Source: Escherichia coli (lineage in GTDB: Bacteria > Pseudomonadota > Gammaproteobacteria > Enterobacterales > Enterobacteriaceae). Taken from it: a stretch of DNA of 64,000 nucleotides. Location of the stretch: the NCBI RefSeq assembly GCF_024223415.1, contig NZ_CP100500.1. One strand, given 5' to 3'. Both the position numbers and the translations under genes were made by a program. Positions 31,114-56,650 of this stretch are shown in pieces (within the stretch, counting starts at the first letter, position 1; each line of letters begins with the position of its first letter). A model generated the notes under the pieces. It was not told the origin of the DNA. It worked only from the letters and a program-made list of their open reading frames with translations, and made no database searches.

Positions 31114-32619
31114 ATGGAGACGGTAGCGAATTTTATTCACGGCGAATGTGTCACCGGTTCAGGCCAGCGCATTCAGGCGATCTTCAACCCGGCCACTGGC
31201 GAGCAGATTCGCCAGGTGGTGATGAGTACGGCACAGGAAACCGAACAGGCGATTGCCGCAGCACAGTTGGCGTTTCCCGCGTGGGCACGTTTTGCTCCAC
31301 TCAAGCGCGCGCGTGTGATGTTCCGCTTCAAAGCGTTGCTTGAAGAGAATATGGAGCGTCTGGCCCGTATTATCAGTGAAGAACACGGTAAGGTCTTCTC
31401 AGATGCAGTAGGTGAACTGACCCGTGGTCTGGAAGTGGTAGAATTCGCCTGCGGCATCCCACATCTGCAAAAAGGCGAACACTCTGCGAACGTTGGCACA
31501 GGTGTCGACAGCCACTCACTGATGCAGCCGCTCGGGGTCTGCGCCGGGATCACGCCGTTTAACTTCCCGGCGATGGTGCCAATGTGGATGTTCCCGATAG
31601 CTCTGGCGACAGGCAACACCTTCGTGCTGAAACCGTCGGAAAAAGATCCGTCTCTGGCGCTCGCGCTGGCGAAACTGCTGAAAGAGGCAGGCCTGCCGGA
31701 CGGCGTATTCAACGTGGTGCAGGGCGATAAAGAATCCGTTGATGTGCTCCTGACCGACCCGCGCGTGCAGGCCGTCAGTTTTGTCGGTTCAACACCGATT
31801 GCCGAATACATGTACCTGACTGCGTCCGCCCACGGTAAGCGCTGTCAGGCGCTCGGCGGTGCGAAAAACCACTGCATTTTAATGCCGGATGCCGATATGG
31901 ATATGGCGACAAACGCCATAATGGGCGCAGCTTATGGTGCGGCAGGAGAACGCTGCATGGCGCTTTCCGTGGTGGTGGCGGTTGGCGATAAAACGGCTGA
32001 TGAACTCTGCGCCCGGCTGGAAAAAAAGATCGCTTCGTTGCGCGTCGGACCTGGCCTGAACCAGACGCCAGAAAACGAGATGGGGCCGCTGATCTCCGCC
32101 GCACACCGCAGCAAAGTGTTGGGCTATATCGACAGTGGCGAAGCTCAGGGGGCTAACCTGCGTGTGGACGGGCGTGGCCTCAGAGTGAAAGGGCACGAGC
32201 AGGGCTATTTCGTTGGGCCGACTCTGTTCGATAACGTCACCCCGGAGATGACCATCTATAAAGAAGAAATTTTCGGACCGGTGCTTTCTGTGGTGCGCGT
32301 AGCAGATTACGCCAGCGCGGTGGATCTGATTAACCGACACGAATATGGTAATGGCTCGGCCATTTTCACCCGTGACGGTGGCTGCGCACGCCGCTTTTGT
32401 GAAGAGGTGCAGGCGGGTATGGTGGGGGTCAACGTGCCGATCCCGGTGCCAATGGCATTCCACTGTTTCGGTGGCTGGAAACGTTCCATTTTTGGCGCGC
32501 TCAATGTTCACGGGAACGATGGCGTGCGTTTCTACACCCGAATGAAAACCATCACTGCACGCTGGCCGGAAATGCAGCAGGAGACAGGTGCAGCGTTCTC
32601 CATGCCGACGCTGGGCTGA
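31114..32619 (+). CDS. iolA: CoA-acylating methylmalonate-semialdehyde dehydrogenase (IolA/MmsA)
   Basis: 501 aa aldehyde dehydrogenase; …[10 protein letters not shown]… and catalytic Cys region GERCMA. Confidence 0.85.
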
Positions 32620-32630
32620 CAGGGGGTTTT

Positions 32631-34556
32631 ATGCAAACCGAACGTATGACTATGGCCCAGGCGCTGGTCAGATTTCTTAACCAACAATATGTTAGCGTTG
32701 ATGGTAAAGAAACGCCCTTTGTGGAGGGCGTGGCAACGATCTTTGGGCACGGTAACGTGCTCGGTATCGGCCAGGCGCTGGAGCAGGATCCTGGTCATCT
32801 GCAGGTGATGCAAGGCTGTAACGAGCAGGGGATTGCCCATATGGCGACGGGATTCGCCAAACAGCATCGCCGTCAGCGTATTTTTGCTGTCACCTCATCC
32901 GTTGGGCCTGGCGCTGCCAATATGGTGACGGCGGCAGCGACGGCCACGGCGAACCGCATTCCACTGCTGCTACTGCCAGGGGATATCTACGCCTGCCGCC
33001 AGCCTGACCCCGTGTTGCAGCAGATCGAGCAGTATCACGATCTCAGCATCAGTACCAACGATTGCTTCCGCCCGGTTTCCCGCTACTGGGACCGCATCAA
33101 CCGTCCTGAACAGCTTATGAGCGCGATGTTAAGTGCGATGCGAACGCTTACTGACCCCGCAAATACAGGAGCGGTGACCATTTGCCTACCTCAGGATGTG
33201 CAGGGGGAGGCCTGGGATTACCCCCTGAGTTTCTTTGCGCGTCGGGTGCATCATATTGAACGCCGTCCGCCTGACCCGCAGCGACTGGCGCAGGCTCATG
33301 CATTGATTTCCCGCAAGCGCCGTCCACTGGTGGTGTGCGGCGGTGGCGTGCGTTACTCCGGTGCGCATGAGGCGTTACGGGAATTTGTTGAAGTGCTGCA
33401 ATTGCCGTTTGCCGAAACCCAGGCCGGTAAGGGGGCGCTGGTAAGTGACCACCCGCTTAATCTGGGCGGGGTGGGCGTGACGGGCGGAATGGCTGCCAAC
33501 CAGCTTGCGCCGCAGGCTGACTTAGTGATTGGCATCGGCACGCGCCTGACGGATTTTACTACCGGCTCTAAGGCGCTCTTTTCTCATCCCGACGTCGAGT
33601 TCCTGCTGCTGAACGTGGCTGAGTTTGACTCCCTGAAGCTGGATGCCACCGCGCTCATTGCCGATGCCCGAACTGGTCTGACAGCGTTGACCCACGCACT
33701 GAAAGATTATCGTAGTGGCTGGGGGGAGGCGATTGCCCATGCGAAATCCGCTTGGCACGATGAATGCTGTCGACTGTGGGAACGCCAGTGGCATCCTGAC
33801 GACGTTCCCGAAGTGGCAGGGCACCTTGATGCACAGCTAATGGAATACGGTGAAACGCTCAACACACACCTGACCCAGACGCGGGTGTTGGGGCTCATTA
33901 ACCAGCATATTGAGGATAACGCCATTGTGGTGGGGGCGGCCGGATCGCTGCCAGGGGATTTGCAACGCCTCTGGCAGGTTAAAACGCCTGACAGTTACCA
34001 TCTGGAGTATGGTTACTCCTGCATGGGGTATGAGGTCGCAGCGGCTATTGGTGCGAAGCTGGCAAAACCTCAGCAGCCGGTGTATGCCATGGTAGGCGAT
34101 GGTTCGTACATGATGCTGCACTCAGAGCTGCAAACTGCCGTACAGGAGGGAATTAAGGTCACCATTCTGCTGTTTGATAACGCCAGCTTCGGCTGCATTA
34201 ATAACCTGCAGATGGGGCACGGAATGGGGAGTTTTGGCACAGAAAATCGTTACCGTAATCCGAAAACAGGTCAGCTTGACGGGCCGTTGGTGAAGGTCGA
34301 TTTTGCGCAAAACGCGGAAAGCTACGGTTGCCGCGCATGGCGGGTACATAATGAGAAAAGCCTGCTGGCGGCGCTGGAAGCCTCGCGCGCTCACCCGGGA
34401 CCGACGCTCCTCGATATCAAAGTGCTACCAAAAACCATGACCCATGATTACGCGTCATGGTGGCGAACCGGCAACGCACAGGTGGCAGAGTCGCCAGCAG
34501 TGCGCCAGGCCGCCGAGCAAACACAGGCTCAGGTGAAAAAAGCTCGTCAGTATTGA
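32631..34556 (+). CDS. iolD: 3D-(3,5/4)-trihydroxycyclohexane-1,2-dione hydrolase (IolD, TPP-dependent)
   Basis: 641 aa TPP enzyme; …GDGSYMM… TPP-binding motif; [11 protein letters not shown] start typical of IolD. Confidence 0.85.
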
Positions 34557-34607
34557 GTTTTCCTGTCGTAACGAAATTTTCATTTCATTTTTCTTTTTTC
34601 CCCTCAC

Positions 34608-34650
34608 CCATCCCCTCTCCCAACGGGAGAGGGGATGGTACAGTTTTTAT
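34608..34650 (+). terminator. GC-rich hairpin followed by T-run after iolD (probable intrinsic terminator)
   Basis: ccatcccctctcc-caac-gggagaggggatgg (13-bp perfect stem) then tacagttttta. Confidence 0.5.
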
Positions 34651-34840
34651 TCCCTCCCCCCCTTGTAATGGAGGGACATATCTTCCTCGGCGTTGTGAGA
34701 TTGATAACAAAATTTATCTAATACATCTCAAAAGTGTTAACTGGCACTCAAAATATAATTTTCACTATTTATAAAAATGAAATAAATGTTTTATTTGTAG
34801 TGTCGTTAGTTCACCGCATTCATCAACACCGGGAGCCGTT

Positions 34841-35827
34841 ATGTTTAACATTGCTTTACTGGGCGCTGGCCGAATTGGCCAGGTACATGCAGCTAACATC
34901 GCCAGCCATAGTGCGACCACGCTCTGGTCTGTGGTAGACCCGAATCAGGAGTTCGCCACGCGTCTAGCGACACAGTATCAGGCGCGCCAGCAGAGCCTGG
35001 ATGAGGCGATGACCGATCCGAACGTTCATGCCGTATTGATCGCCTCCGCGACCGACACCCACGCGGATCTGATTGAAATGGCCGCCCGTTACGGCAAAGC
35101 CATTTTCTGTGAAAAACCGGTACACCTTGATCTTGCCCGCGTACGCGACTGCCTGAAAGTGGTCAAAGAGTATGACGTACCGCTGTTTATCGGTTTTAAC
35201 CGCCGCTTTGACCCACAGTTCCGTCGCGTGAAAACCGACACTCAGGCCGGGCGTATCGGCAAACCGGAATCACTGCTGATCATCTCCCGCGATCCGTCTC
35301 CACCGCCTGCGGAGTACGTGCGTGTTTCCGGCGGCATGTTCCGTGATATGACCATCCACGACTTTGACATGGCACGCTTCATCATGGGTGAAGAGCCGGT
35401 GTCGGTGTATGCCCAGGGCAGCAATCTGGTGGATCCGGCGATTGGCGAAGCGGGAGATATCGACACCGCATTTATCGTTCTGAAATATGCCTCCGGCGCG
35501 ATGGCGACCATCGTCAACAGTCGCCGTTCTTCATACGGCTACGACCAGCGCCTGGAGCTACACGGTTCCGAAGGGCTGCTGTGCGCGGGCAATATCCTTG
35601 AAAACCAGGTGCAGCACTACGGCAAACAGGGTTGCACCAGCGCGCTGCCGGAACACTTCTTCCTGCAACGCTACAAATCCGCTTACGCAGCGGAATGGGA
35701 GCACTTTGTTGCGGTTCTGCGCGGCGAAGCGGTGCCTGATTGCAGCGGCGATGATGGTGAACGTGCGCTGTACCTCGCGGATAAAGCGCTGGAATCACTG
35801 CGTTGCCAGCGTGAGATCGTCCTCTAA
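34841..35827 (+). CDS. iolG: myo-inositol 2-dehydrogenase (Gfo/Idh/MocA family, IolG)
   Basis: N-terminal Rossmann motif LGAGRIG, …EKP… motif, 328 aa. Confidence 0.8.
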   Translation: MFNIALLGAGRIGQVHAANIASHSATTLWSVVDPNQEFATRLATQYQARQQSLDEAMTDPNVHAVLIASATDTHADLIEMAARYGKAIFCEKPVHLDLARVRDCLKVVKEYDVPLFIGFNRRFDPQFRRVKTDTQAGRIGKPESLLIISRDPSPPPAEYVRVSGGMFRDMTIHDFDMARFIMGEEPVSVYAQGSNLVDPAIGEAGDIDTAFIVLKYASGAMATIVNSRRSSYGYDQRLELHGSEGLLCAGNILENQVQHYGKQGCTSALPEHFFLQRYKSAYAAEWEHFVAVLRGEAVPDCSGDDGERALYLADKALESLRCQREIVL

Positions 35828-35858
35828 ACACAACAACCCTACACAGAGAGACATAATA

Positions 35859-36788
35859 ATGAAAAAACTGATCTTAGCCGCCCTAATCGCCATGACATCC
35901 GGGGCCGCCATAGCCGAAAACGAGCAAATTGTTTTCAGTACGCCAAACCTGGCCATGCCGTTTGAAGTTCACATGCAGCGCACGGCGGTGAAAGCCGCAA
36001 AAGAGATGGGGGTGAAACTTCAGGTACTGGACGGTCAGGGCAGCTCACCGAAGCAGGTGGCTGACCTGGAAAACGCCATCACCCGTGGTGCGCAGGGCTT
36101 TATCGTCTCCCCGAACGATGTGAACGCGGTCTCCAGTGTGGTAGATGAAATTCAGGATACGAAGCTGCCGGTCGTTACGCTTGACCGCTCTGTCGACAGC
36201 CAGAAAAAAGTGCCGCACTTTGGTGCCAACAACTACAAGGGCGGCCAGGCGATTGGCGACTTCGTCAAAACCAAATTCCCCAACGGCGCGGAGATCATTC
36301 TGTTGACCGGTCAACCGGGTTCCTCCTCCAACATTGAACGCACCAAAGGGATCCGTGACAGCCTGAAGGCTGGCGGGGATATGTACAAGATCGTCGCCGA
36401 TCAGACCGGCAACTGGATGCGCTCGGAAGGGATGCGCATTGTCGAAAGCGTTTTGCCGTCGCTGCCAAAACGTCCTCAGGTGATCCTCTCTGCCAACGAT
36501 GATATGGCGCTGGGGGCGATTGAAGCGCTGCAGAGTCAGGGTGTGAAACCGGGTGAAATCCTGGTCACCGGTTTTGATGCGGTACCGGAAGCACTGGCCC
36601 GCGTGCGCGACGGCTGGCTGGCGGTTACGGCGGATCAGCGTCCCGGCTTTGCGGTGACCACGGCGATGAGCCAACTGGTGGCTAACGTGCGTGAGAAAAA
36701 AACTATCACCGGGGCGGACTATCCGCCGACGCTGATCACCAAAGAGAACCTGCAACAGGCTGAGCGTATTGCTGAGGCCGGTAACTGA
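35859..36788 (+). CDS. periplasmic sugar-binding protein of ABC transporter (ribose/inositol type)
   Basis: Signal peptide MKKLILAALIAMTSGAAIA, type-I PBP fold pattern; start 35859 has upstream RBS; the longer 35487 ORF overlaps iolG and is rejected. Confidence 0.8.
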   Translation: MKKLILAALIAMTSGAAIAENEQIVFSTPNLAMPFEVHMQRTAVKAAKEMGVKLQVLDGQGSSPKQVADLENAITRGAQGFIVSPNDVNAVSSVVDEIQDTKLPVVTLDRSVDSQKKVPHFGANNYKGGQAIGDFVKTKFPNGAEIILLTGQPGSSSNIERTKGIRDSLKAGGDMYKIVADQTGNWMRSEGMRIVESVLPSLPKRPQVILSANDDMALGAIEALQSQGVKPGEILVTGFDAVPEALARVRDGWLAVTADQRPGFAVTTAMSQLVANVREKKTITGADYPPTLITKENLQQAERIAEAGN

Positions 36789-36839
36789 TTTGTCTGGAGC
36801 CGCCGTACGGGCGGCTCCCCATAAATAAGGAGCAGGCTG

Positions 36840-38062
36840 ATGTCGCAACCCTTACTGAAAGTAACCGACCTGGCAAAAAGCTTTTCCGGCGTATGGGCGC
36901 TGAGCAGCGCCCAGCTCACCGTCGGCACGGGTGAAATTCACGCTTTGCTGGGCGAAAACGGCGCTGGGAAATCCACGCTGTTGAAGGCACTCGCGGGCGC
37001 ACAGCCACAAACGCGCGGGGAGATCTGGTTCAATGGCGAAACGCTGCCGGTGGACGACTCCCCGGTAGAACGGCAGAACAAGGGCATTATCACCATCTAT
37101 CAGGAATTCAACCTGCTGCCCAATATGACCGTTGCGGAAAACATGTTTCTCGGACGCGAACCGCGTAAACGTAACCTGATCGTCGACGAAAAAGCGGTCA
37201 ATCAGGAAGCGCAGGTGATTCTCGATTATCTGCAGCTGAATGTCGCACCCACCACGCCAGTCGCCCGTCTGAGCGTGGCCCAGCAGCAGATGGTGGAGAT
37301 TGCCCGGGCGCTGACCCTCAATGCCAGGCTGATCATCATGGATGAACCCTCCGCCGCCCTGAGTGACAGCGAGGTGGAAAGCCTGCACCGCGTGGTGCGG
37401 GAGCTTAAAAACCGCGGCGTGAGCATTATTTACGTTACTCACCGTCTGCATGAAGTTTTCCAGCTTTGCGATCGTTTCACCGTTTTCCAGGATGGCCGTT
37501 TCACCGGCACCGGCGCAGTGACGGAGACGAACGTAGAGCAGTTGATCCGCCTGATGGTAGGGCGTGATGTGGCCTTTAACCGCCGCCCTGCCAGCGAAAC
37601 CCACCATGAAGACAAACCTGTCCGTTTGTCGGTGAAGGGGTTAAGCCGGGAAAAACCGCCGCTGGATCCACACGGCATCGCCCTGCATGACATCAGTTTT
37701 CACGTCCATGCAGGGGAAGTTCTGGGTATCGCTGGGCTGGTGGGGGCTGGTCGTACTGAGGTAGCGCGCTGCCTGTTTGGCGCCGACGCCTTTACCACCG
37801 GCAGCTTTGAGCTGGACGGCGTGCCGTACCAGCCGCGTGACCCACTTTATGCGCTGGAGCAAGGGCTGGCGCTGGTGCCGGAAGATCGCAAAAAAGAGGG
37901 GGCGGTGCTGGGTCTGTCGATTCGCGACAACCTGTCGCTCTCCTGCCTCTCCTCGCTGTTGCAGTGGCGCTGGTTTGTGAATACCCGCAAAGAGGACGAC
38001 CTGATTGAGTCCTACCGCCAGGCGCTGCAGATCAAAATGGTCAACAGCACGCAAGAGGTGCG
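36840..38062 (+). pseudogene. sugar ABC transporter ATP-binding protein (two-domain, RbsA-like), 3'-truncated by Mu-like prophage insertion
   Basis: First ABC domain complete (GENGAGKST…LSVAQQQMVEIARAL…IIMDEPSAAL); second domain stops after …QIKMVNSTQEV, before the expected LSGGNQQK signature; sequence from about 38063 is phage end. Confidence 0.75.
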
Positions 38063-38110
38063 TGATGCGCCGCGCGATAAATGCGCTCTATCTTGTGCGA
38101 TAAATGACAA
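38063..38110. repeat. Mu-type prophage end: terminal TG followed by two CGATAAATG-containing repeats (putative transposase-binding sites)
   Basis: tgatgcgccgcgcgataaatgcgctctatcttgtgcgataaatgaca; resembles recalled Mu attR terminus TGAAGCGGCGCACGAAAAACGCG and R-site core CGATAAATGCG. Confidence 0.5.
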
Positions 38111-38140
38111 CCAATCGGCGTTTCATTATTTGAAAAAGAA

Positions 38141-38520
38141 TTACATTTCAGGTTGCGTTATGACTGTCCCAGCGGGGTGATAGCGGTAGATCGTTGACAG
38201 TCCAATATCATAGATAATTACCAGCCGCTTTCTGTCATACCCTTTCTGGAGCAATCTTGCGATCTGCTCATGCTGCTCCTTCGTCAGTTTCGGGCGACGC
38301 CCTCCAACTCTCCCTTGTGCTCGCGCAGCAGTCAGTCCTGCCAGCGTGCGCTCAACTATCAGTTCACGTTCCATTTCTGCCAGTGCACCCATCATATGAA
38401 AAAAAGAACCTTCCCATCGGAGTGCTGGTATCGATTAAATCCGTCAGACTGCGAAAATTGACACCTTTTGCGCGTAGCTCTTCTGTGAGCGAAATGAGGT
38501 GTTTCATTCTTCTACCCAAC
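38141..38520 (-). pseudogene. Gin/Pin/Hin-family serine DNA invertase, N-terminally truncated and frameshifted
   Basis: …LISLTEELRAKGVNFRSLTDLIDTSTPMGRFFF then frame slips at A7 tract (38389-38395), continuing …MMGALAEMERELIVERTLAGLTAARAQGRVGGRRPKLT…; catalytic N-terminal about 60 aa missing. Confidence 0.7.
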
Positions 38521-38815
38521 CGTTACAGCTTCCAGACCACCAATGTATCCCCTCTTTTAAGGCACCTTAAAGCGCGTTTCAGGCCTGGTCGTTGCGACTT
38601 AGTTCCGCTCATTTGTCCTCAAAAATTTGTTCACATCCTGCGCACATTAATACATTGCGTTTTGGTCATTTGTTGACACACGTATGTAGCCAATCAGCAT
38701 CAAAAACACTCCCTTTTGAGTGGTTAAAGTAGTGAGATAATGTGGGGAAGATTTGAGAGATAACCCGCCCCCGCAATATCGCATTTAACTATATTGTGAG
38801 GGCGCGTGATACCGT

Positions 38816-39430
38816 TCAGCCAGCAAGCGCCAGTGGCGCTTCCGGCCAGCTGATTTCAGGTGCCTTGCTGATATCCAGTGCGTTCAGATCGTCGATATAA
38901 TCCAGCACGGCATTCAGTTTTGCCGTTTCTTCTGGTGTCAGACTGCGACCTGCCCGCAACTTAAGGTTGATGAGGTCGATGGACTTCATCGCCTGATCCA
39001 CCCGTTCCTGGCGTTGCTGTCTGGCAACCTCCAGCTCTTCGGCTTGCTGCCGTTCTGTATCGGTTACCCACGCCTCACCGTTCCAGGTATCCCATGGTGT
39101 GGCAGGCTGTTTTGTCGTTGTCCCTTCCGGGTAGTCACCTGGTTGGGTAATCTGGACCGGATTACCGTTCTCTGTGCTGTATACCGTCTCTCCACGATGA
39201 TCGGGGACATACTCCCACCCGTCCAGCGTGGACGTCCGGCAAATCACGTAACCCGGCATTGCCTCTGGCGGGGCATCGGCGCATGAATGTGCCGGGGTAC
39301 CCACCCCCAGGGCCAGATACTCCACAGAGGATGAGGTGTATTCCCGGGTTTCCTCATCATAGTGATATACAGTGATATCGCCTGCGAAAGTGGCGATACC
39401 GTTTTCATCCAGAACTGCAGTGTTACTCAT
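38816..39430 (-). CDS. phage tail fiber assembly protein (Tfa, Mu U-like)
   Basis: 204 aa immediately downstream of tail fiber gene with ATGA-type overlap; typical Tfa position. Confidence 0.7.
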   Translation of the reverse strand: MSNTAVLDENGIATFAGDITVYHYDEETREYTSSSVEYLALGVGTPAHSCADAPPEAMPGYVICRTSTLDGWEYVPDHRGETVYSTENGNPVQITQPGDYPEGTTTKQPATPWDTWNGEAWVTDTERQQAEELEVARQQRQERVDQAMKSIDLINLKLRAGRSLTPEETAKLNAVLDYIDDLNALDISKAPEISWPEAPLALAG

Positions 39431-41274
39431 TAAACTGCCCTCACAATATAATTAAAAGCGATATTGCGCGGTCTGATCGCTATCCATCTGTCTTTTTCAT
39501 TACTCACCAGCTTACCGGCTCTGGCTATTGCCCATCTGTCAACTGGTTTTGTGCCGTACAGGATGCCGTTACCGGTTCTGGGTTGATCAGGGGTTATGTT
39601 TATGATGTCGTTATCATGTGATGCAAATGAAATCCCTGCCTGAATATCTGCACCTCCCGCTACGCCGTGGTACGCCTGTATGGAGGTACAAATATATGTT
39701 GCTTCCTGTGTGGATAACAATAAGCGTCCCCTGTCAATCATTCGCAGGTCATCCCATCCACGAATAAATTCCCCGCGCAAATCTGGTAGCCTGAGGTCAG
39801 GGTAGGCCACCGCCAGTTTTGGGTATTTTGTACGCGTGAATGCGGCACCGTTGCACTGTAACCACCCCTCAGGTGGTCTTGACGAAGGCCACGGAACGGG
39901 TACGCCAACTGGCAGCGTCGAGCCTTCTCCTAAACCAAGGTAATCAAGAATATCTTTTATGCTTTGTTTACCCATGATGACGCGGGCAACAGACGAAAAA
40001 ACAGGGGCGTCTGTGATCTGAGCCCAGCGATGAGTGTGGGCTGCCGAGGCTTTGCTGTTGGCAAGGTCATACGCAGCTTTAACAGCTTTTGGTGTGGCCG
40101 CCAGCATTTCGGAATTGCTGTTTGTGGCGCTGCTTAGCTGTACGATGCCTTTGCGTCCGGTGGTTGCATCCTGTCCTGTATACTTGCTCGTCAGCATATC
40201 GTGTAAGGCTTTAACCGCTTTGGGGGTGGCGGCCTCAGTCTCTGACTCACTGTTTGTGGCACTGCTCAGCTGTACGGTGCCTTTTGCCGTCAGCGAGGCT
40301 GATGGCACACCTGTTATCTGATTCCACGGGTGGGTGTGGCTGGCGGGTGCTTTACCGGCTGCAAGGTCATATGCAGCCTTGACGGCTTTTGGTGTGGCCG
40401 CCAGCGTTTCGGAATTGCTGTTTGTGGCGCTGCTCAGCTGTACGATGCCTTTGCGTCCGGTGGTTGCATCCTGTCCTGTATACTTGCTCGTCACCATATC
40501 GTGTAAGGCTTTAACCGCTTTGGGGGTGGCGGCCTCAGTCTCTGACTCACTGTTTGTGGCACTGCTCAGCTGTACGGTGCCTTTTGCCGTCAGCGAGGCT
40601 GATGGCACACCTGTTATCTGATTCCACGGGTGGGTGTGGCTGGCGGGTGCTTTACCGGCTGCAAGGTCATATGCAGCCTTGACGGCTTTTGGTGTGGCCG
40701 CCAGCGTTTCGGAATTGCTGTTTGTGGCGCTGCTCAGCTGTACGATGCCTTTGCGTCCGGTGGTTGCATCCTGTCCTGTATACTTGCTCGTCACCATATC
40801 GTGTAAGGCTTTAACCGCTTTGGGGGTGGCGGCCTCAGTCTCTGACTCACTGTTTGTGGCACTGCTCAGCTGTACGGTGCCTTTTGCCGTCAGCGAGGCT
40901 GATGGCACACCTGTTATCTGATTCCACGGGTGGGTGTGGCTGGCGGGTGCTTTACCGGCTGCAAGGTCATATGCAGCCTTGACGGCCTTCGGTGTGGCGG
41001 CCAGTGTTTCAGAAGTGCTGTTTGTGGCGCTGCTCAGTTGGGTGAATCCTTTTTCTGTCAGTGTCGCGTCAGGGTGGTTACGGGAACGTGCGTGTTCAGC
41101 CAGTGACTGTGCGACTTCCTCCGTTTTCTTCTTCAGCCATTTCGTCCTGTTTGCCAGTTGCCGGGGGGCTCGATTTGATATCCCGTCTGCACCACCCAGA
41201 ACCGGATCTGATGTCTCCAGTTGATAGATATTTTCTTCCCACTTTTCTGTTTCATTCAGGTTTCCCATAATCAA
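39430..41274 (-). CDS. phage tail fiber protein (Mu S-like) with internal 100-aa tandem repeats and C-terminal tail-collar-like domain
   Basis: 614 aa; repeated block …GTVQLSSATNSESETEAATPKAVKA…; C-terminal …PDLRGEFIRGWDD… collar-like motif. Confidence 0.8.
   Translation of the reverse strand: MIMGNLNETEKWEENIYQLETSDPVLGGADGISNRAPRQLANRTKWLKKKTEEVAQSLAEHARSRNHPDATLTEKGFTQLSSATNSTSETLAATPKAVKAAYDLAAGKAPASHTHPWNQITGVPSASLTAKGTVQLSSATNSESETEAATPKAVKALHDMVTSKYTGQDATTGRKGIVQLSSATNSNSETLAATPKAVKAAYDLAAGKAPASHTHPWNQITGVPSASLTAKGTVQLSSATNSESETEAATPKAVKALHDMVTSKYTGQDATTGRKGIVQLSSATNSNSETLAATPKAVKAAYDLAAGKAPASHTHPWNQITGVPSASLTAKGTVQLSSATNSESETEAATPKAVKALHDMLTSKYTGQDATTGRKGIVQLSSATNSNSEMLAATPKAVKAAYDLANSKASAAHTHRWAQITDAPVFSSVARVIMGKQSIKDILDYLGLGEGSTLPVGVPVPWPSSRPPEGWLQCNGAAFTRTKYPKLAVAYPDLRLPDLRGEFIRGWDDLRMIDRGRLLLSTQEATYICTSIQAYHGVAGGADIQAGISFASHDNDIINITPDQPRTGNGILYGTKPVDRWAIARAGKLVSNEKDRWIAIRPRNIAFNYIVRAV
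40021..41045. repeat. 300-bp tandem repeat, about 3.4 copies, inside tail fiber gene
   Basis: Rows 40321-40620 and 40621-40920 are identical as read; 40021-40320 near-identical; plus-strand shadow ORFs recur at 300-bp spacing (40034, 40334, 40634, 40934). Confidence 0.85.
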
Positions 41275-41849
41275 CTTCTCCCGTGGTTATAACTGCCATC
41301 ATGGATGGCGGTATTGTTATAGCGAATGGCCACAGACTGATACTCCAGGCTGGCCAGATGGCAGCGGGCCGGTGCAAATGCAGTGAGCGTCTGACGCAGC
41401 ATCGCGGCCTGATCGTTAGTAATGGGCTGTTTCAGAATAACGCGATAAACCGCCCAGCCTGCTGTATCTCCATGAACAAACAGTCCGTTATGGCTGCGAT
41501 TGCCGTCGTAACTGAGACGACCTGTGCCTTCAATCAGATCCACTTCACCAAAGCCAAAACGGCGGATAACTTCCCGGATTGACCACGGCGTCCCTTTATA
41601 CCGGTGCAGTTCGATGGCTGCTTTTATAAGCATGCGGCGAACATCGTCCGATTCCGCCAGCTCCCAGCCATCGCCAGACAGTGAGAACTGCTCGCCCAGC
41701 CATGGCAGCGCGGAACTGTCGACGATATCGACGAGAAAGACCATCAGTACGCTCAGGTCGATGTTATCCAGCCGTCCTGCCAGTCTTCCCAGCGTCCTGA
41801 GACTGATATCACCCTCAAGCGGTGGCGGGAGTTGTAATGGCTCAGTCAT
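41271..41849 (-). CDS. phage tail protein I-like (Mu gp48-like)
   Basis: 192 aa between baseplate J-like gene and tail fiber, conserved synteny. Confidence 0.65.
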   Translation of the reverse strand: MTEPLQLPPPLEGDISLRTLGRLAGRLDNIDLSVLMVFLVDIVDSSALPWLGEQFSLSGDGWELAESDDVRRMLIKAAIELHRYKGTPWSIREVIRRFGFGEVDLIEGTGRLSYDGNRSHNGLFVHGDTAGWAVYRVILKQPITNDQAAMLRQTLTAFAPARCHLASLEYQSVAIRYNNTAIHDGSYNHGRS

Positions 41850-42945
41850 CAGACACTCCAGTCATGTTAAGTGTGATCGCCGTACAGTTTGCCCATTCGT
41901 TTTCTGCCACCACCCTCAGTGCCGGTGTCACCAGCTCAACCTGGTACACCCCGGAAACGGACAATGCACTGATAATCTGGCTGGGGACAATATCACGCCC
42001 CAGCGCGGTGGCACGTGATGCCACCCAGTTCTGTATGGCGCTGTTAGCGTTGTCCTTTACCAGCCTTGCATCCTGGTCACGATAGATCGTAATCCTGGCT
42101 TCAATGGTGTAATCCACCTTCACTGGTGTTTTAGCCCGCACGGTATCAGTGAGTGGTCTGACTTTTTCGTCCGAACAGAAACTCTCTACCAGCGTCAGAA
42201 CACCGCTGTCCGGCAGGCCGGTGCTCAGCAGCGGATAAATTTCTACTGTGCCGGGAACCGGGGAAAGTACAGCAACATCGACAATGCCGGGATGGGCCTG
42301 CATGGCATGAAAGCGGTATGCGCCACGGCTTCCGGCATTGGTGAATGACTCCGGGGCCAGCCTGATACGCTCCCGGAGCCTGTCATCGTCTTCCTGTTCT
42401 GAACCGCCGGAGCTGGCCGTCAGATTGCTCACCAGCAGGTCGACGTTATCAATCTCATCGAGTAACTGACTGACCTGCGCAGGTTGCCAGCCGTTACCAG
42501 CAGTACCGGGTTCGGTACAGGTGGCCGTGACATTGACCAGTAGCAATCCGGCCTTCAGTACCACATCTGTATCGGTGGCAAAAATAACGCTGTCGGAAGC
42601 GCTGACGCGGGTGCCTGCCGGGATCAGCACATCAATGGCCAGTGCCTCATCCACAGAGAACTGGAGCGTGGTGGTGGCAGGCTGCGCGGCAAGGCGGTAT
42701 ACACCGACCAGTTCACCGAGGTAATCAATCATCGGCTCACGGGCAAAGGCGACAAGATTCTGCTTTGCTGCCTCCTGTACCGCAACCCTGACCAGCATTT
42801 CGCGATAGGCCCACAGGTCAATCAGCAGACGTTCTGCCTGTGCCGGGTACAACGTTTTGCCGGTATCCGCTTCATATTTCGCAATTATTTCTGCCGTGAT
42901 TTTATCGGCATCGCGTTCAATAAAATCGGGTTCTGTCAGCGCCAT
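41842..42945 (-). CDS. baseplate J-like protein (Mu gp47-like)
   Basis: 367 aa, position and size match baseplate J family. Confidence 0.75.
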   Translation of the reverse strand: MALTEPDFIERDADKITAEIIAKYEADTGKTLYPAQAERLLIDLWAYREMLVRVAVQEAAKQNLVAFAREPMIDYLGELVGVYRLAAQPATTTLQFSVDEALAIDVLIPAGTRVSASDSVIFATDTDVVLKAGLLLVNVTATCTEPGTAGNGWQPAQVSQLLDEIDNVDLLVSNLTASSGGSEQEDDDRLRERIRLAPESFTNAGSRGAYRFHAMQAHPGIVDVAVLSPVPGTVEIYPLLSTGLPDSGVLTLVESFCSDEKVRPLTDTVRAKTPVKVDYTIEARITIYRDQDARLVKDNANSAIQNWVASRATALGRDIVPSQIISALSVSGVYQVELVTPALRVVAENEWANCTAITLNMTGVSDD

Positions 42946-43283
42946 AGCAGCTCCTGAGTCCGGGTCTGTCCGTCTGAGCCTTTCCAGCTCACCCGGAGCG
43001 TAAGATGTTCGCCGTCGACGGCGGGTTTAACCGACATAAGCTGGCAGCGGGGTTCCCAGCGCCGGATGGCATCGACGGATTCGCGCACCACATGCGGAAT
43101 GGCCCGGTCTACAGGCCAGTCGATATAAAGATGCAGATTGCTGCCGAACTCCGGGCGATGCGGGTCGCTGCCGCGGGGAGTCCGCAGGATAATTTGAATC
43201 GCCTGCCGGATATCATCCAGCCCCCGGACAATTTCGCCGGGAGCCTGCAGGGCTGGTTGCCAGAATACTGAGGTGGTTTTCAT
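42936..43283 (-). CDS. baseplate assembly protein W (GPW/gp25-like)
   Basis: 115 aa, synteny and size. Confidence 0.7.
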   Translation of the reverse strand: MKTTSVFWQPALQAPGEIVRGLDDIRQAIQIILRTPRGSDPHRPEFGSNLHLYIDWPVDRAIPHVVRESVDAIRRWEPRCQLMSVKPAVDGEHLTLRVSWKGSDGQTRTQELLWR

Positions 43284-43339
43284 GGGGGCAGTATTGCCCC
43301 CGGGAAGTAAGCGCCGATATTAAAGGCGTTTAAGAAGGT

Positions 43340-43867
43340 TCAATGGGAATGGTGATTAGAGTTCTGACCATCAGCAAATATGTCACCCGTTGCATGGGCG
43401 CTTCCGTTGATTTCCAGATCACCATTGAGTGTCGCGTTGCCGTTGATTGTGGTAACTCCCGTGAGGTCAATGTCTTTCCCTTTGAGAGAGATATCAGCGG
43501 CAACCTCCACCACGATACGCTCAATACCTCCTCTGACCGTCAGCGTATGGGTCGCGCGGTTATAACTGAACTCCGCGCCATCAGCGTATTTCGTACCCCG
43601 GACGCTTTTATCACTGAACGGCGGTTTATCGACGTCTGAGTACACCGCGCCCAGAATAACACCGTCCTCGCCGTTGGCATCGAGCAGCACCTCAACCTGC
43701 TCCCCCACGTCAGGGAGCCAGTAATCCTTGTTATCCTGGGTATTGCGCTGCAGCACGTTAAGCCAGTTTGTGCGCAGGTTATCGCATTCAGGCAGACGAA
43801 CGCGGGCCTGAACCCTGTCGGCATCAACGGCACTGACCGTACCGACCTGACGAGTGACACCAGTCAT
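43340..43867 (-). CDS. baseplate spike/assembly protein V-like (Mu gp45-like)
   Basis: 175 aa with C-terminal …NGDLEINGSAHATGD… spike-like repeats. Confidence 0.7.
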   Translation of the reverse strand: MTGVTRQVGTVSAVDADRVQARVRLPECDNLRTNWLNVLQRNTQDNKDYWLPDVGEQVEVLLDANGEDGVILGAVYSDVDKPPFSDKSVRGTKYADGAEFSYNRATHTLTVRGGIERIVVEVAADISLKGKDIDLTGVTTINGNATLNGDLEINGSAHATGDIFADGQNSNHHSH

Positions 43868-45018
43868 TTTTTCTTCTCCTTAATCACCGTCGATGTACTG
43901 CCATCCGGGTGATAAACCGTGAGTTTCTGAGTTTTTTGTTTTTTCCCTCTTGTGACTGGCCCCCGTGCCACTTCCAGCTCTGTGGTGTAGCCGCTGTTAC
44001 GGTCAAACGCATGGCGGGCAGTGGTTATGAGCCATGGCCCGGATAACTGCCCAAAACCCACCAGTTCAATTTTGTTGCCTGCTGTCAGTTGAGGCGTTCC
44101 CGTCAGCGTCAGGGAGCCGTTCTGCTGGTATTCGTTATGTCTGGCCAGTGCTGAATCCGCTTTAATCCGGGCACTGTCCGGGTCGCTGACGCGGCTGTTA
44201 ACTTTAAGTGAGTCAGCGCTGGTAACCTTACCACCTTTGAGCTTTTTGTCGCTTTCACGGGTACCACCATCAGCTTCGTAGACGATCAGTTTTTTACTGC
44301 TGCTTTTCTGGTGTTTTACCTTTGCAGATTTATAGACCCGGTTGATGGTGTCACGCAGGGAAAAGCGGGCCACATCCTGCGGTTTTAACTGCCTGACCGG
44401 CTCCTGACTGCGCAGTGTGGCCAGATGAGAAAAAATCAACTGGTCACTGACCACTTTCACTGCATAACCATACTCGCTGGCCAGCCGGCGCAGAAAACCC
44501 ACGTCGGTTTCAGCATACTGGGTCACCCGGTCGATTCTGATGGACTCAATGCTGCCCACCAGTTTCAGTCGGTGCTTTCTGGCAATCCGCCCCGCAACAG
44601 CTGCCAGAGTGGTGTTCTCAAAACCACGGCTGGATTTAGTCCGCAGAGCACTGTTAACCGAGGTGGCCACCCCACGGATAGCGACAACGGACGCGGGCGA
44701 ACTCACTTCGATCTCGTCTATTGAGAATGTACCGCAGGACAGCAGTTTCTCGCCCTGATAACCCATTTTCAGCGTCAGCGTGTCACCCTTGCCCGGATAC
44801 CACTTATCCAGCCAGCGGCCATCGGTGTCGTCCAGCTCCACCTCAATGGTATCGGACTCATTTTTGATGTTATCGCTCCAGACCACACGGGTGACATAAG
44901 GCGCGATATCAGAGGTGATGTTTTTCTGCAGATACCACATAGTGAACACCGGCGTCAGCACCTCGCTGACGCCGGTTAACGCTGATGTGGCTTGCGCAGT
45001 GCTGTTTATCTCAGCCAT
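43864..45018 (-). CDS. phage late control D-like / baseplate hub protein (Mu gp44-like)
   Basis: 384 aa, synteny downstream of tape measure and gpU-like genes. Confidence 0.7.
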   Translation of the reverse strand: MAEINSTAQATSALTGVSEVLTPVFTMWYLQKNITSDIAPYVTRVVWSDNIKNESDTIEVELDDTDGRWLDKWYPGKGDTLTLKMGYQGEKLLSCGTFSIDEIEVSSPASVVAIRGVATSVNSALRTKSSRGFENTTLAAVAGRIARKHRLKLVGSIESIRIDRVTQYAETDVGFLRRLASEYGYAVKVVSDQLIFSHLATLRSQEPVRQLKPQDVARFSLRDTINRVYKSAKVKHQKSSSKKLIVYEADGGTRESDKKLKGGKVTSADSLKVNSRVSDPDSARIKADSALARHNEYQQNGSLTLTGTPQLTAGNKIELVGFGQLSGPWLITTARHAFDRNSGYTTELEVARGPVTRGKKQKTQKLTVYHPDGSTSTVIKEKKK

Positions 45019-45221
45019 GGGGCAATATCCTCTTCTGTACGGGCATCTTCAGCCTCAATAACCGGGATCAGTAACAACAACCCGGAGGGCAGCACCGGCG
45101 TGATAGCCACGTGCGGATTGGCTGCAATAATCCGGGGATAGCCCAGCGGGTCACCGTAGTACTGCCATGCCAGCGAATCCCAGCGCTCTCCGTCACGGGT
45201 AATATGTTCAAGAAACATCAC
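45006..45221 (-). CDS. phage tail protein X-like (LysM-like)
   Basis: 71 aa, …WDSLAWQYYGDPLGYPRIIAANPHV… resembles P2 gpX pattern. Confidence 0.6.
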   Translation of the reverse strand: MMFLEHITRDGERWDSLAWQYYGDPLGYPRIIAANPHVAITPVLPSGLLLLIPVIEAEDARTEEDIAPWLR

Positions 45222-46102
45222 ACACTCCTCGTCAGTATTCTGGCGGCCATTGCACTTAATCGCGGAGACATGCGGTTGAATGCTGTGCCGGCGGCGTTAA
45301 GCTGCCCGGAAACGGTATCCAGAGCACCTGCAATATTTCTTTTGTCCACACCACTCAGCGCAGACTGTGCCTGCTGTATATACGTGGCTGCTTCGCTGGC
45401 TGTTCTGGCCAGACTGATGGCATCGGGCATGGATTCAGAGAGTGCATTAAATGCCGGCACACTTTTCCCCAGAGCGCCGGATATATTACCCAGTCCGCTC
45501 ATCAGTCCCGGCACACGGGTCAGCGCGACAACGGGGTTATCCTTCATTTTCTGCGCCACCCGAACGGCACTGATGGTGGTCTGGAGTACAGACTGCGCCT
45601 GTTTCGCATAGTTGACACCGTTGCGGATGAACTGTGCCCCCCCGGAAGGCGATGGAACGGCACCAGATACGGCCCCGGCACCGGGAACCTGCCTGCGTAT
45701 TGCCGGTGGTTTCAGGGGATTCTTCGGGTCACCGGTGTATTCCCGGAGAGACACGGTTGCGCTGACAGCCAGTACGTTGCCGGTACTGTCAGTCTGCTCG
45801 CTGGTTGCAGTCACATCGGTAATCACGAACCAGGCGCGATAGTCACCGTTGCCGAAGACCAGCGCCAGTGCCTGATGGGCTTTCATGGCTGCCCGAAGTC
45901 TCGCCAGCTCCACGTCGGGCACACAATAATGCTGATGGAAGACCAGACTTATCTGGATTTCGTCCAGCCTGTCGCCGACGAACTGCAGACCGGGCTTACT
46001 CCCGATGCGGGCATGCTCCGCATAATCGACGCCAGACGTGGCCTCGAAGCCGTCCCAGTAGGTAATCAGCTCAAACTCAATATCACCCAGTACGGCAAAC
46101 AT
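45218..46102 (-). CDS. phage tail protein U-like / DNA circulation protein (Mu gp43-like)
   Basis: 294 aa directly downstream of tape measure gene; N-terminus MFAVLGDIEFELITY… gpU-like. Confidence 0.6.
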   Translation of the reverse strand: MFAVLGDIEFELITYWDGFEATSGVDYAEHARIGSKPGLQFVGDRLDEIQISLVFHQHYCVPDVELARLRAAMKAHQALALVFGNGDYRAWFVITDVTATSEQTDSTGNVLAVSATVSLREYTGDPKNPLKPPAIRRQVPGAGAVSGAVPSPSGGAQFIRNGVNYAKQAQSVLQTTISAVRVAQKMKDNPVVALTRVPGLMSGLGNISGALGKSVPAFNALSESMPDAISLARTASEAATYIQQAQSALSGVDKRNIAGALDTVSGQLNAAGTAFNRMSPRLSAMAARILTRSV

Positions 46103-49100
46103 CAGCGGTACTCCTTACGTTGTTTCTGAGCCAGCAGACGCTCCAGCATTTTTTCCAGCTCATGCAGACTCATATTCAGGGCACCAGTCAGTCCTGCAGG
46201 CGCTGTGGTTTCCCTGCCATTGAGGAAAAACTGAGGATTAAAGCTGACCTGGATACCACCAGACGTTCCACCGCCGGTTGCAGCTGCACCACGGCCTGAA
46301 TATCCGGCAGCCAGGATTTCAGGCGAGGGGATACGGGGAATATCCGGTGCCATCTCATTTGCCAGACGTTGCCCTGGTAAAATCGATGCCCGGGTGGAGA
46401 GCGGAATAGCGGGCATGGAAGACAAACTATTGATTACGGCTCCGATCGCATTTTTAGCAGACGACATAAACCCATTGATATCGGGCAACGGCATACTGAA
46501 GCGAACACCTGAAGTGTTATCCCGTATTTCTGGCCCCTGAATGCTCACGGGCATTTTGGGGAGCAGTTCACTGGCCATTCGCTGCCCGGCCAGAGCTGCA
46601 AGCGGAGTAGTCCGCTGCAGGCCAATGGCGGCCCCCTGCGCGATATTGTCGCCAAAGACCATAAACACGCGGCTCGGCGAATGAATGCCCAGCTTTTCGC
46701 TGAACCAGCCACTGATGCTGTCACCCATTCCGGTTACACTGGATTTGAGCGACTCCCATTTGTTTTTGATACCGTTAATCAGACCATCGACAAGATGGCC
46801 ACCGAAGTCGGTAAACTTTGCCGGCAGATCAACACCAAGATATTTCATCGCAGCTGCAAAGGCTTTATAGAGCAGACCTGCCGGCGACCAGTTAATCAGC
46901 AACTTACCAGTTCCCACAATGCCGCCGTTAAAGGCTTCCTGAATGTCAGCCCAGCACTGTTTAAACCAGCTACTGATGCTGTCACCCATTCCGGTTACAC
47001 TGGATTTGAGCGACCCCCATTTGTTTTTGATACCGTTAATCAGACCGTCGACAAGATGGCCACCGAAGTCGGTGAACTTTGCCGGCAGAGCAACGCCGAA
47101 ATATTTCAGCGCAGCTGCAAAGGCTTTATAGAGCAGGCCTGCCGGCGACCAGTTAATCAGCAACTTACCAGTTCCCACAATGCCGCCGTTAAAGGCTTCC
47201 TGAATGTCAGCCCAGCACTGTTTAAACCAGCTACTGATGCTGTCACCCATTCCGGTTACACTGGATTTGAGCGACCCCCATTTGTTTTTGATACCGTTAA
47301 TCAGACCGTCGACAAGATGGCCACCGAAGTCGGTGAACTTTGCCGGCAGAGCAACGCCGAAATATTTCAGCGCAGCTGCAAAGGCTTTATAGAGCAGGCC
47401 TGCCGGCGACCAGTTAATCAGCAACTTACCAGTTCCCACAATGCCGCCGTTAAAGGCTTCCTGAATGTCAGCCCAGCACTGTTTAAACCAGCTACTGATG
47501 CTGTCACCCATTCCGGTTACACTGGATTTGAGCGACCCCCATTTGTTTTTGATACCGTTAATCAGACCGTCGATAAGATGGCCACCGAAGTCGGTGAACT
47601 TTGCCGGCAGAGCAACGCCGAAATATTTCAGCGCAGCTGCAAAGGCTTTATAGAGCAGACCTGCCGGCGACCAGTTAATCAGCAGCTTACCAGTTCCCGC
47701 GATACCGCCGTTAAAGGCTTCCTGAATGTCAGCCCAGCGCTGTTTAAACCAGCCACTGACTGCCCCCCAGTTGCGGTAGATAAGGTAAGCTGCTGCCGCG
47801 ACAGCGGTGATAACGAGACCGATGGGATTCATCATCAGCGCCCGGCCAATCCAGAGAACGGCACGCCCGGCGATCATAATGCCGCGAACCAGTCCCCCGG
47901 AGAGCACACCACCCAGTGTTCTGACTCCTCTGGCGACGGCACCAAAGCCGGTCACCAACCAGCGAAGCTTACCGCCTTCCCCCAGTGCAAGCGTCAGACG
48001 AAGCCAGTTGGTCCGGAGTAAAACAGCAGTTTTCCAGACGTTCACAAAGGGGGAAATAAGGAGATTCAGCCCCAGTTTGAGACCAATAGTCGCTATCTTA
48101 ATCGCAAGGAGCGCACTGATGAGCTTAAAAGCCCCACTGACAAATTGCGGGTGAGTCGCCACCCAGTGTTTTGCCCCCTGAATGACTGGGATCAGCTCCT
48201 GAGTCAGAGAAATAAAAGAAGGGGCGAGCTGATCGCCCAGCGTAATAGCCAGATCGCGACTGCTGACCATAAGCGCTTTAGTGGCTTCAAGGGGAGATTT
48301 CAGCCGCTGATCGTAAGCACTGGCAAGCAAATCGTTATCCGCAGCCCTGAGAGCACCGGCACGGATCTCGCGATATCTGTCCATGTTGGCCAGCATCGGG
48401 CGGATAAATGCCATGACCTGCATATCCGCGAACATATCGCCCAGACCAAAGTTTTTCGCCAGAGCCTGAAGTGCCTCATCTCTTGCCGTATCATTCTTTA
48501 TTTTCATGGCGGATTTGAAGCCGGCCAGCGCTTCGGGGCTTTTGGCATTGAGGTAACGTTCTATAACACTCAACATCCCTTCAATCGGAGAGATCCCCGC
48601 AGCCTTATAACTCGCAACAGAACCCTGCAAATCAATACCCAGATCAGCAAACTGTTTCTGAGTATCGCGGGCAAAAATTTTGGTAAGAAAGTTTTTAAAA
48701 TTATTGGCTGCTTCGTCGGTGGAGCCCGCACCGATTTTTGCTACCTGGAGACTGGCCCCGATTTCAGCAACAGCCTCTTTTCCACTGGCAATACCCGCCA
48801 TCATTGGGGCCAGGGACTGCATCCACTTGACCTGATCCGGGATTTCAAATGACCCCTGGTCACCGGCATAAGCCATAATATTCTGGACGGCACTAAAATC
48901 TCTGGCGGCACCTTTCAGGGAGTTTTGCCAGACTGCGGCCACTTTTGCCCAGTCCTGAGATGACGTGCGTGTTGCCGTTGCCGCGCGGGCAATATCCGGC
49001 ATCAGAAAACCGATATCTGACAAGTTATCAATATTGTCGCTGATGAGCGAACCCACCGCCTCCTGCAGTTCATCCTGATACTGATTGTATTTTAGCGCCC

Positions 49101-49575: not shown

Positions 49576-49650
49576 AGTGGTTAACCTCCGGGGAAGGTGA
49601 AAAGACGTGAGGGGATAACGCAGAACAGCCGCCACTGGCGGCTGTCTGTA

Positions 49651-50068: not shown

Positions 50069-50165
50069 GATTGTGCTCCTGTGTAAGTTCAGGGCAGTAT
50101 GTCGGGAGAAGCGCGTGACGGATATTAAAGGAGATTAAGAAGAAGGGGCCGGAGCCCCTGTGATG

Positions 50166-50447: not shown

Positions 50448-50449
50448 CG

Positions 50450-53549: not shown

Positions 53550-53550
53550 C

Positions 53551-53886: not shown

Positions 53887-53896
53887 AGACTTCTCC

Positions 53897-54850: not shown

Positions 54851-54859
54851 GCTTTCTCC

Positions 54860-56648: not shown

Positions 56649-56650
56649 TG

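Follow-up and report, generated by a model that had tools for sequence, protein, structure and literature searches.

Probable transposition of a BcepMu-type prophage into an inositol-transporter ATPase gene of Escherichia coli

The interrupted iol cluster and the adjoining prophage genes

The window, by which we mean the whole stretch of 64,000 nucleotides of Escherichia coli DNA that was analysed, holds part of an inositol (iol) catabolic cluster and, next to it, the genes of a prophage (Table 1). Genes for an RpiR-type regulator, a methylmalonate-semialdehyde dehydrogenase (iolA-like), iolD, iolG, and a periplasmic binding protein lie upstream of a gene for a two-NBD sugar ABC transporter ATPase. 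In the uninterrupted iol locus of E. coli CE0026f (L091), this gene encodes 515 amino acids and is followed by genes for a permease and a Gfo/Idh/MocA oxidoreductase, and by iolC, iolE, and iolB. The best NCBIfam matches to the window ATPase are the sugar-ABC ATPase profiles AraG, RbsA, and XylG (E values of about 1e-110 to 1e-113), all of them below their own (equivalog) cut-offs. Profiles and neighbours together are those of a CUT2 inositol importer ATPase. Specificity for inositol is assigned from gene context, and the label "inositol transporter" is reasonable because the iolA-like gene, iolD, iolG, and the binding protein gene are its neighbours.

The ATPase open reading frame (36840-38180) extends across the junction into phage sequence as far as a stop at 38180, and so encodes a chimera of 446 amino acids. 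Residues 1-408 are identical to the intact CE0026f protein, and the two proteins diverge from residue 409, just ahead of the second LSGGNQQK signature. The NCBIfam profiles likewise cover residues 1 to about 408, where their coverage ends at approximately position 398 of 504. The last 107 of the 515 residues are missing, including that signature, Walker B (LIVDEP), and the rest of the second NBD. An earlier, sequence-only reading of this DNA had described the ATPase frame as losing its family similarity where a phage end begins, and the inositol ABC ATPase gene as disrupted by a prophage. Both descriptions are borne out: the change falls exactly at 38062/38063 against the profiles and against the uninterrupted iol locus, a comparison that the same reading had proposed.

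Of 5426 complete E. coli genomes, 51 hold a match to the host part of the window (35000-38062), with identities of up to 99.8%; the host is therefore an E. coli with an uncommon iol island. Homologues of the ATPase with 97-98% identity were found in Lelliottia, Enterobacter, and Citrobacter in a scan of GTDB representative genomes, which shows that the island is common to several enterics.

Prophage sequence begins at 38063 and continues past the end of the window. The P2-type tail module (gpI, J, W, V, D, (X), U, tape measure, assembly chaperone, tube, and sheath) is collinear with gp39-gp51 of BcepMu at 29-76% amino-acid identity. The Mu-type head module comprises Gp37, gp36, the major head protein, a protease/scaffold, G, F, the portal, the large terminase, and the small terminase (DUF3486/Mu gp27); the Pfam families found on identical proteins are Portal_Mu, Phage_Mu_F, Phage_Mu_Gp27, Gp36, and Gp37. 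A lysis cassette follows. From comparison with relatives, approximately 12-13 kb more of prophage is expected past 64000, with genes for a Dam methylase, a repressor, an rve transposase, an ExeA-like ATPase, Gam, GemA, and Mor, and then the left end.

All 26 late, lysis, and tail open reading frames are open and full length. The Gin/Pin-type invertase gene has lost 13 bp at one place and 1 bp at another, has gained 1 bp in a T run, and contains a nonsense codon, and the invertase of a related prophage in strain NRZ14408 (L103) is likewise annotated as frameshifted. At 38763/38764, relatives hold alternative tail-fibre tip and chaperone cassettes of 0.4-1.0 kb that form an invertible segment. 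Recent tandem duplications are present inside the fibre and tape-measure genes. Decay of the prophage appears to have begun at the right end, where the invertase is dead and a fibre cassette is lost, with the late genes intact. The phage may be viable even so, because it does not depend on the invertase.

Table 1. Features of the iol locus and the prophage in the window
Feature	Position	Strand	Basis or remark
5' part of CUT2-type sugar ABC ATPase gene, iol cluster	36840-38062	+	Codons 1-407 and first two bases of codon 408
GGTGCG, right-hand copy of 6-bp target-site duplication	38057-38062	.	Intact locus compared with window and scaffold L104
Prophage right end	38063-38108	+	Terminal TG (CA on transferred strand), two tandem 23-bp repeats; presumed transposase binding sites
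Gin/Pin-type serine invertase pseudogene	38141-38700	-	Alignment to intact 190-aa gene of AH20J067 (L010) and three-frame translation
Deletion scar at 38763/38764	38750-38780	.	Alternative fibre cassettes of relatives missing
Tail-fibre assembly chaperone	38816-39430	-	PHROGs
Tail fibre	39430-41274	-	PHROGs
P2-type tail module	41271-52398	-	PHROGs
Tape measure	46102-49635	-	Within P2-type tail module
Tube	50450-50971	-	Within P2-type tail module
Sheath	50971-52398	-	Within P2-type tail module
Mu-type head module	52639-60816	-	Pfam on identical proteins and BcepMu comparison
Lysis cassette and small genes (two small proteins, spanin-like protein, SLT transglycosylase, holin)	60813-63177	-	
SLT transglycosylase	62090-62824	-	
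Holin	62827-63177	-	
Start of stretch between late genes and immunity/early region	63178-64000	.	Prophage continues past window

Prophage ends, junctions, and target-site duplication

Host sequence extends to 38062, and the phage end from 38063 has the form TGATGCGCCGC-GCGATAAAT-(14 nt)-GCGATAAAT. Across the junction, the window reads ...acgcaagaggtgcg/TGATGCGCCGCGCGATAAATGCGCTCTATCTTGTGCGATAAATGACAACC..., with the slash standing for 38062/38063 (here and below, slashes within sequences mark junctions), and positions 38063-38107 read TGATGCGCCGCGCGATAAATGCGCTCTATCTTGTGCGATAAATGA. Hundreds of E. coli prophages located beside unrelated host genes align to the window, and these alignments start at 38061-38063. 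Three other assemblies (GCA_900482235.1 and two from Logan) contain the identical chimeric frame of 446 amino acids, and one of them is 100% identical to the window over 28396-38918 (10.5 kb). Since three independent assemblies carry the same join, it is not an assembly artefact.

The two copies of the core GCGATAAAT occupy 38074-38082 and 38097-38105. A degenerate form of the core, GMGATAAAT, has one further match in the 64 kb, where 0.8 is expected by chance. The right end in the window and both ends of relatives share one layout, with TGAT at the terminus and two copies of the 9-bp core G(A/C)GATAAAT, one at positions 12-20 and one at 35-43; the left end, TGATCAGACATG..., was found in AH20J067, in NRZ14408, and on a metagenome scaffold (L104). 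Both BcepMu ends, left and right, begin with TGAAG and carry cores of the form G(A/C)GATA(T/A)(T/A)T at positions 12 and 35, which matches the geometry in the window. Termini of the TG...CA type, represented in the window by TG at 38063-38064, are common to many DDE elements and do not discriminate Mu from others. Imperfect direct repeats of 23 bp at both ends have been described for phiE255 and BcepMu (PMC2920897).

The end also resembles that of Mu. In a search of both strands of the whole window with the terminal 25-mer of Mu, the best match lies at 38063 with 18 of 25 positions identical (runner-up 16), and the BcepMu right end at 38063 scores 18 of 25 as well. The proposed likeness to the Mu right-end terminus therefore stands for the terminal 25 bp (the R1 region), but the two-repeat geometry is symmetric, as in BcepMu at both ends, and differs from the L1-L3/R1-R3 layout of Mu. 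Similarity to the Mu end is not decisive; the subtype is decided by the symmetric geometry together with the transposase family. The repeated cores, taken earlier for transposase sites of the Mu type, are indeed present in two copies, but they are most likely binding sites of a BcepMu-type transposase and not MuA sites, because gene content, transposase, inverted early region, end geometry, and 6-bp duplication are all of the BcepMu type.

At the intact locus of CE0026f, the target occurs once, as a single GAGGTGCGTAAGC (single GAGGTGCGTAAGCTCTCTGGCGGCAACCAGCAG). The right junction in the window reads GAGGTGCG/TGATG (also ...gaggtgcg/TGATGCG). The reciprocal junction was predicted beforehand as the left end, GGTGCG, and the rest of the ATPase gene, an arrangement that places an ATG in frame within the phage end and opens a frame of 113 amino acids starting MSDQVRKLSGGNQQK... 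This protein was found exactly on one ENA metagenome scaffold, L104, where Mor and a 210-aa phage gene adjoin the junction from one side, and the ATPase remainder and the permease from the other. The scaffold junction reads TGATCA/GGTGCG/TAAGC, or at greater length ...CTCATGTCTGATCA/GGTGCG/TAAGCTC; its DNA, preceded by Mor, is ...CTCATGTCTGATCA/GGTGCG/TAAGCTCTCTGG, also given as ...ttcatttatctcatgtctgatca/ggtgcg/taagctctctggcggcaacc. The right junction in the window and the left junction on the scaffold, set against the single copy at the intact locus, identify GGTGCG (38057-38062) as the duplication. The sequence-only reading had proposed a search for the opposite end and a matching duplication; both were found on the scaffold, but the repeat is 6 bp and not the 5 bp at 38058-38062 that had been put forward. 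The insertion leaves two chimeric frames, the N-terminal part of 446 amino acids and a C-terminal part of 113 amino acids whose ATG lies within the phage left end.

Scaffold L104 comes from a different sample; it shows that this insertion exists with its two junctions, but does not show the genome of the window to be free of rearrangement. Over its phage part, it has 99% identity to AH20J067 and only 86-95% to NRZ14408, the best late-gene match, so that either the element in the window is a mosaic or the scaffold does not hold exactly the same phage copy. In the genome of the window, the left end beyond 64000 is predicted to lie about 38-39.5 kb from 38063, near window-equivalent 76-77.5 kb, and to read ...CTCATGTCTGATCA followed by GGTGCGTAAGCTC; written across the junction, it is expected as ...CATTTATCTCATGTCTGATCA/GGTGCG/TAAGCTCTCTGGCGGCAACC with the host flank GGTGCGTAAGC. 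Among IMG/VR viral contigs, the predicted left junction had 0 exact matches. A GTG-start, 109-aa version of the C-terminal ATPase fragment has no exact record, and a 92-aa version is recorded only as a contig-end artefact. An exact-protein search with the permease for a left-junction contig returned only intact iol loci among the 24 longest blocks listed.

The length of 6 bp at the iol site assumes TG...CA ends; taken literally, the repeat could extend to 8 bp, the terminal T and A of the phage being the same as the adjoining host bases. Relatives at other sites help to fix the length. The prophage of CE0011b (L102) splits emrA between copies of ATGCGT, which is unambiguously 6 bp because the bases adjoining the repeats differ, and that of NRZ14408 splits an eib/YadA-like gene between copies of TCTTCA, again unambiguously 6 bp. 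In AH20J067, where ssuB is split, the flanks TCGAGA are compatible with 6 bp. From these three relatives, BcepMu-type E. coli prophages duplicate 6 bp and not 5 bp. The target duplication of Mu is 5 bp. Tn552 makes duplications of 6-7 bp, with which the 6 bp of the BcepMu-type E. coli prophages are compatible.

Family assignment of the prophage

BcepMu matches 25 of the 26 late frames in the window, in the same order and with 23-76% identity (against the complete BcepMu genome), and the PHROGs and Pfam assignments agree with this. Mu matches 6 of the 26 (tblastn against the complete Mu genome), and these matches are weak or partial except for F (47%). The closest relative over the late genes, the prophage of NRZ14408, has 99.0% DNA identity to the window over 47225-64000, up to the last base. 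The transposase and the early region were read in relatives with an identical SLT protein or 99% DNA identity, as those of the window lie beyond 64000. The early genes of these relatives encode a repressor, small DNA-binding proteins, a DUF3102 protein, a 589-aa rve transposase, a 388-aa ExeA/AAA_22 protein, Gam, a DUF2786 protein, GemA, and Mor, and are followed by the left end. They lie on the strand opposite to the late genes and are thus inverted relative to Mu.

The transposase of the NRZ14408 prophage is 98% identical to that of Escherichia phage PhiKM, 92% to that of Klebsiella phage KP12, and 68% to BcepMu gp09 and to that of phiE255. BLASTP detected no similarity between it and MuA (E=0.2). 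Its only Pfam match is rve, whereas transposases of the MuA type carry DDE_2, Mu-transpos_C, and HTH_Tnp_Mu, and the gene beside it encodes an ExeA/AAA_22 protein and not MuB. For the BcepMu group, transpositional replication, a terminal CA, a Tn552/IS1604-type transposase unrelated to MuA, a P2-like tail, and an inverted early cluster with genes 1-13 on the bottom strand have been described (PMC2771037; PMC2628397). Tn552/IS1604-type transposases share the catalytic domain Pfam rve, and the BcepMu transposase has been assigned to them (GenBank note; PMC2771037); Tn552 and IS1604 are small transposons and not phages, and the likeness rests on the domain and the published assignment.

The window itself holds the collinear proteome of Mu-type head and P2-type tail genes and a right end with two 23-bp repeats, and the relatives have the rve transposase and ExeA-like ATPase in an inverted early cluster and insert at many unrelated sites (in or beside ssuB, emrA, ecpC, phoA, eib, and others). 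Lacking are a MuA-type transposase with MuB (as read in the relatives), a 5-bp duplication, a Mu-wide proteome, and operons that all run rightward. The element is therefore a BcepMu-type transposable prophage. Calling it Mu-like is right in the broad sense, as it is a transposable prophage that begins at 38063, but an identity with Mu or D108 is not supported, given its gene content, ends, and duplication and the transposase of its relatives.

With BcepMu and phiE255 of Burkholderia (genus Bcepmuvirus), the lineage shares the order of Mor/GemA, ExeA-like ATPase, rve transposase, repressor, holin-SLT-spanin, head, and tail, the TG...CA ends with two 23-bp repeats each, and the early cluster on the opposite strand. 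The two differ in that amino-acid identity is just 23-76%, with a divergent large terminase (23%), and in the module at the right end: BcepMu has an acyltransferase there, whereas the E. coli lineage has a fibre chaperone, an invertible fibre cassette, and a Gin-type invertase, which is decayed here. BcepMu is described as being without a fibre inversion system (PMC2771037).

Phages PhiKM (PQ738613) and KP12 (OM835952), Escherichia phage Phi06_2974 B, and the prophages of about 640 of the 5426 complete E. coli genomes belong to the same enterobacterial branch. Its members share 87-94% DNA identity in the tail and baseplate genes, transposases with 92-98% identity to the one in the closest relative of the window, identical ends, and insertions in many different genes. 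The copy in the window differs in its position in the iol ATPase gene, its dead invertase, its missing alternative fibre cassette, and its fibre and tape-measure tandem duplications. Head and lysis genes were matched in 641 of the 5426 complete genomes, and in 114 of these the match spanned 80% or more of the 8-kb query, so that this type of phage is common in E. coli. The 'Mu-like' prophages SalMu, PhotoMu, and ChromoMu reportedly belong to the BcepMu family too.

Compared to Mu (AF083977), the lineage shares transposition for replication and integration, TG...CA ends, homologues of Gam, GemA, Mor, F, G, portal, and TerL, and a Gin invertase adjoining the right end. In contrast to Mu, the rve transposase and ExeA-like ATPase replace MuA and MuB, com/mom is absent, and the tail genes are unrelated in sequence; all Mu genes point rightward, and the Mu end sites are asymmetric.

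Origin and consequences of the insertion

Position 38063 is very probably the right end of a BcepMu-family prophage of approximately 38-39 kb that was integrated into the iol ATPase gene by DDE transposition. The infecting phage would have integrated into the gene for the ATPase of the ABC importer in the myo-inositol catabolic island. Its Tn552-like rve transposase would bind the two 23-bp repeats at each phage end, expose the 3' CA termini, and join them to target phosphates staggered by 6 bp, after which gap repair would duplicate GGTGCG. The adjacent ExeA-like AAA+ protein probably takes a MuB-like role in target handling.

A genuine Mu/D108-type prophage (Muvirus), with MuA and MuB, MuA-binding R1/R2 sites, and a 5-bp duplication, would account for the terminal 25 bp, for the motif CGATAAATGCG, which is present in Mu R2, for the Gin-like invertase beside the right end, and for the homologues of F, G, portal, Gam, GemA, and Mor. 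Against it stand the small share of late frames that match Mu, the P2-type tail, duplications of 6 bp, and an end geometry that is that of BcepMu at both ends, and for the close relatives this type is refuted by their rve transposase, inverted early region, and 6-bp duplications; we consider it very improbable. Joins between prophage and host are often att sites, which is why integrase-mediated, site-specific integration at an att site in the ATPase gene was considered along with an assembly chimera at 38062/38063, although nothing specific speaks for either. The join recurs in independent assemblies, neither the window nor the relatives carry an integrase gene, the relatives are inserted at many unrelated sites where the flanking hexamers differ, and intact loci have no att-like repeat, so that there is next to no chance of either. 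The recurring join and the differing flanks effectively refute both, and the earlier view that the insertion into a gene interior reflects transposition and not site-specific integration is supported by those same relatives.

A defective remnant, whose early region or left end is lost or rearranged and to whose strain the left junction of the scaffold would not apply, is unlikely. The decay at the right end, with at least 4 lesions in the invertase and the deleted alternative fibre cassette, the internal tandem duplications, and the position of the early region outside the window would fit it, but every late, lysis, and tail frame is full length, the window is 99% identical to the complete prophage of NRZ14408 up to its last base, and a left junction with Mor and the left end is known in public data at exactly the same target. 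A further possibility concerns the end that resembles Mu R1 in register and the Mu/P1-type Gin invertase in an element whose transposase, as read in relatives, has no detectable sequence similarity to MuA, which, if not a coincidence, would point to a shared code or a shared factor. Such an ancestral end-recognition code common to both transposase lineages, or a constraint from a host or packaging factor, is a decidedly faint prospect, and we view in the same way the separate idea that the chimeric frames reassemble a working split ATPase.

Under transposition of a BcepMu-type prophage, the truncated ATPase would be inactive, and the permease, iolC, iolE, and iolB would be parted from the upstream promoter region by approximately 38 kb of phage DNA that is transcribed in the opposite direction or independently. 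Because of this separation, inositol import should be abolished in the lineage, and inositol catabolism is probably lost as well; we infer this loss of inositol use, as we do the role of the ExeA-like protein. The lineage is predicted to be without ABC-mediated myo-inositol uptake and probably without growth on inositol, a trait that is already rare in E. coli given the scarcity of the island.

Annotations should name the element a BcepMu-type transposable prophage rather than Mu, give it TG...CA ends and a 6-bp duplication, and mark the iol ATPase gene as an insertion pseudogene. The family is already known, free-phage representatives of it (PhiKM and KP12) have been sequenced, the insertion is an ordinary, fresh one of a common, described family, and the current understanding of transposable phages is unchallenged. 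The exact junctions can be used as a lineage-specific PCR marker.

Inactivated fibre switch and chimeric reading frames

The Gin/Pin-type invertase of the prophage is a pseudogene: 13 bp are missing, and two frameshifts and a nonsense codon interrupt the reading frame. Cassettes for alternative tail-fibre tips and chaperones, which span 0.4-1.0 kb in relatives, have been lost through a deletion at 38763|38764, and the host-range switch of the fibre is therefore frozen. In the closest relative, the L103 prophage of E. coli NRZ14408, the invertase annotation is likewise frameshifted. Insertion of the prophage into the ABC ATPase gene created two chimeric ORFs, one at each junction, the left one being carried by the metagenome scaffold L104. 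The longer ORF overlaps the 3' end of the invertase gene.

Features of the window and of the reciprocal junction (positions in the window unless stated)
Feature	Position	Strand	Remark
Hormone-sensitive-lipase-type esterase	5243-6241		Within the low-GC stretch 1-10000
Rpn-family recombination-promoting nuclease/putative transposase gene	15126-16115		Follows the 377- and 571-aa ORFs
ecf/shf-like LPS-modification cluster	22282-27075		
IS110-family transposase ORF	28418-29188		Between TPR-protein gene and iol regulator
446-aa chimeric ORF	36840-38180		Residues 1-408 of the ATPase, followed by 38 residues encoded by the phage
113-aa chimeric ORF	L104 1234-1575		ATG within phage left end, then ATPase C-terminus
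Gin/Pin-type invertase pseudogene	38141-38700		Adjoins the phage end
Tail-fibre gene	39430-41274	minus	Tandem repeat at 40061-41037
Tape-measure gene	46102-49635	minus	Tandem repeat at 46703-47759

Tandem repeats in tail genes

Two tail genes contain long tandem repeats. The tape-measure gene holds four in-frame copies of a 261-bp unit (97% identity) and encodes 1177 aa, whereas the product in relatives has 983 aa; a longer tail is predicted, provided that the phage is functional. In the tail-fibre gene, a 300-bp unit is repeated in 3.3 copies with 98% identity, and the product has 614 aa compared to 543-643 aa in relatives. The plus strand of this repeat yields a ladder of spurious 95-aa ORFs.

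The iol island and neighbouring regions

Taken together, an IS element at the edge of the iol island, its rarity in E. coli (51 of 5426 complete genomes), its occurrence in seven plasmid records (identity ~89%), and homologues in Lelliottia, Enterobacter, and Citrobacter with 97-98% protein identity suggest that the island moves horizontally. The IS fragments at this edge differ in other strains, as in positions 1-3000 of L091, the E. coli CE0026f locus with an uninterrupted ATPase gene.

The LPS-modification cluster comprises genes for a PgaB-like deacetylase, a GT4 glycosyltransferase, a CptA-like phosphoethanolamine transferase, whose gene is split into two ORFs (24349-25404 and 25417-26016), and an LpxM/MsbB paralogue. 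The cluster resembles the pO157 ecf operon and the shf-msbB2 genes found on plasmids of Shigella and EAEC. Two large neighbouring ORFs (377 and 571 aa) within 12212-16115 had no NCBIfam match, nor did the large ORFs 583-1806, 3390-4121, and 6278-8080 of the low-GC stretch. This stretch, with a GC content of 33-48% compared to 52-59% beyond it, is probably another acquired island.
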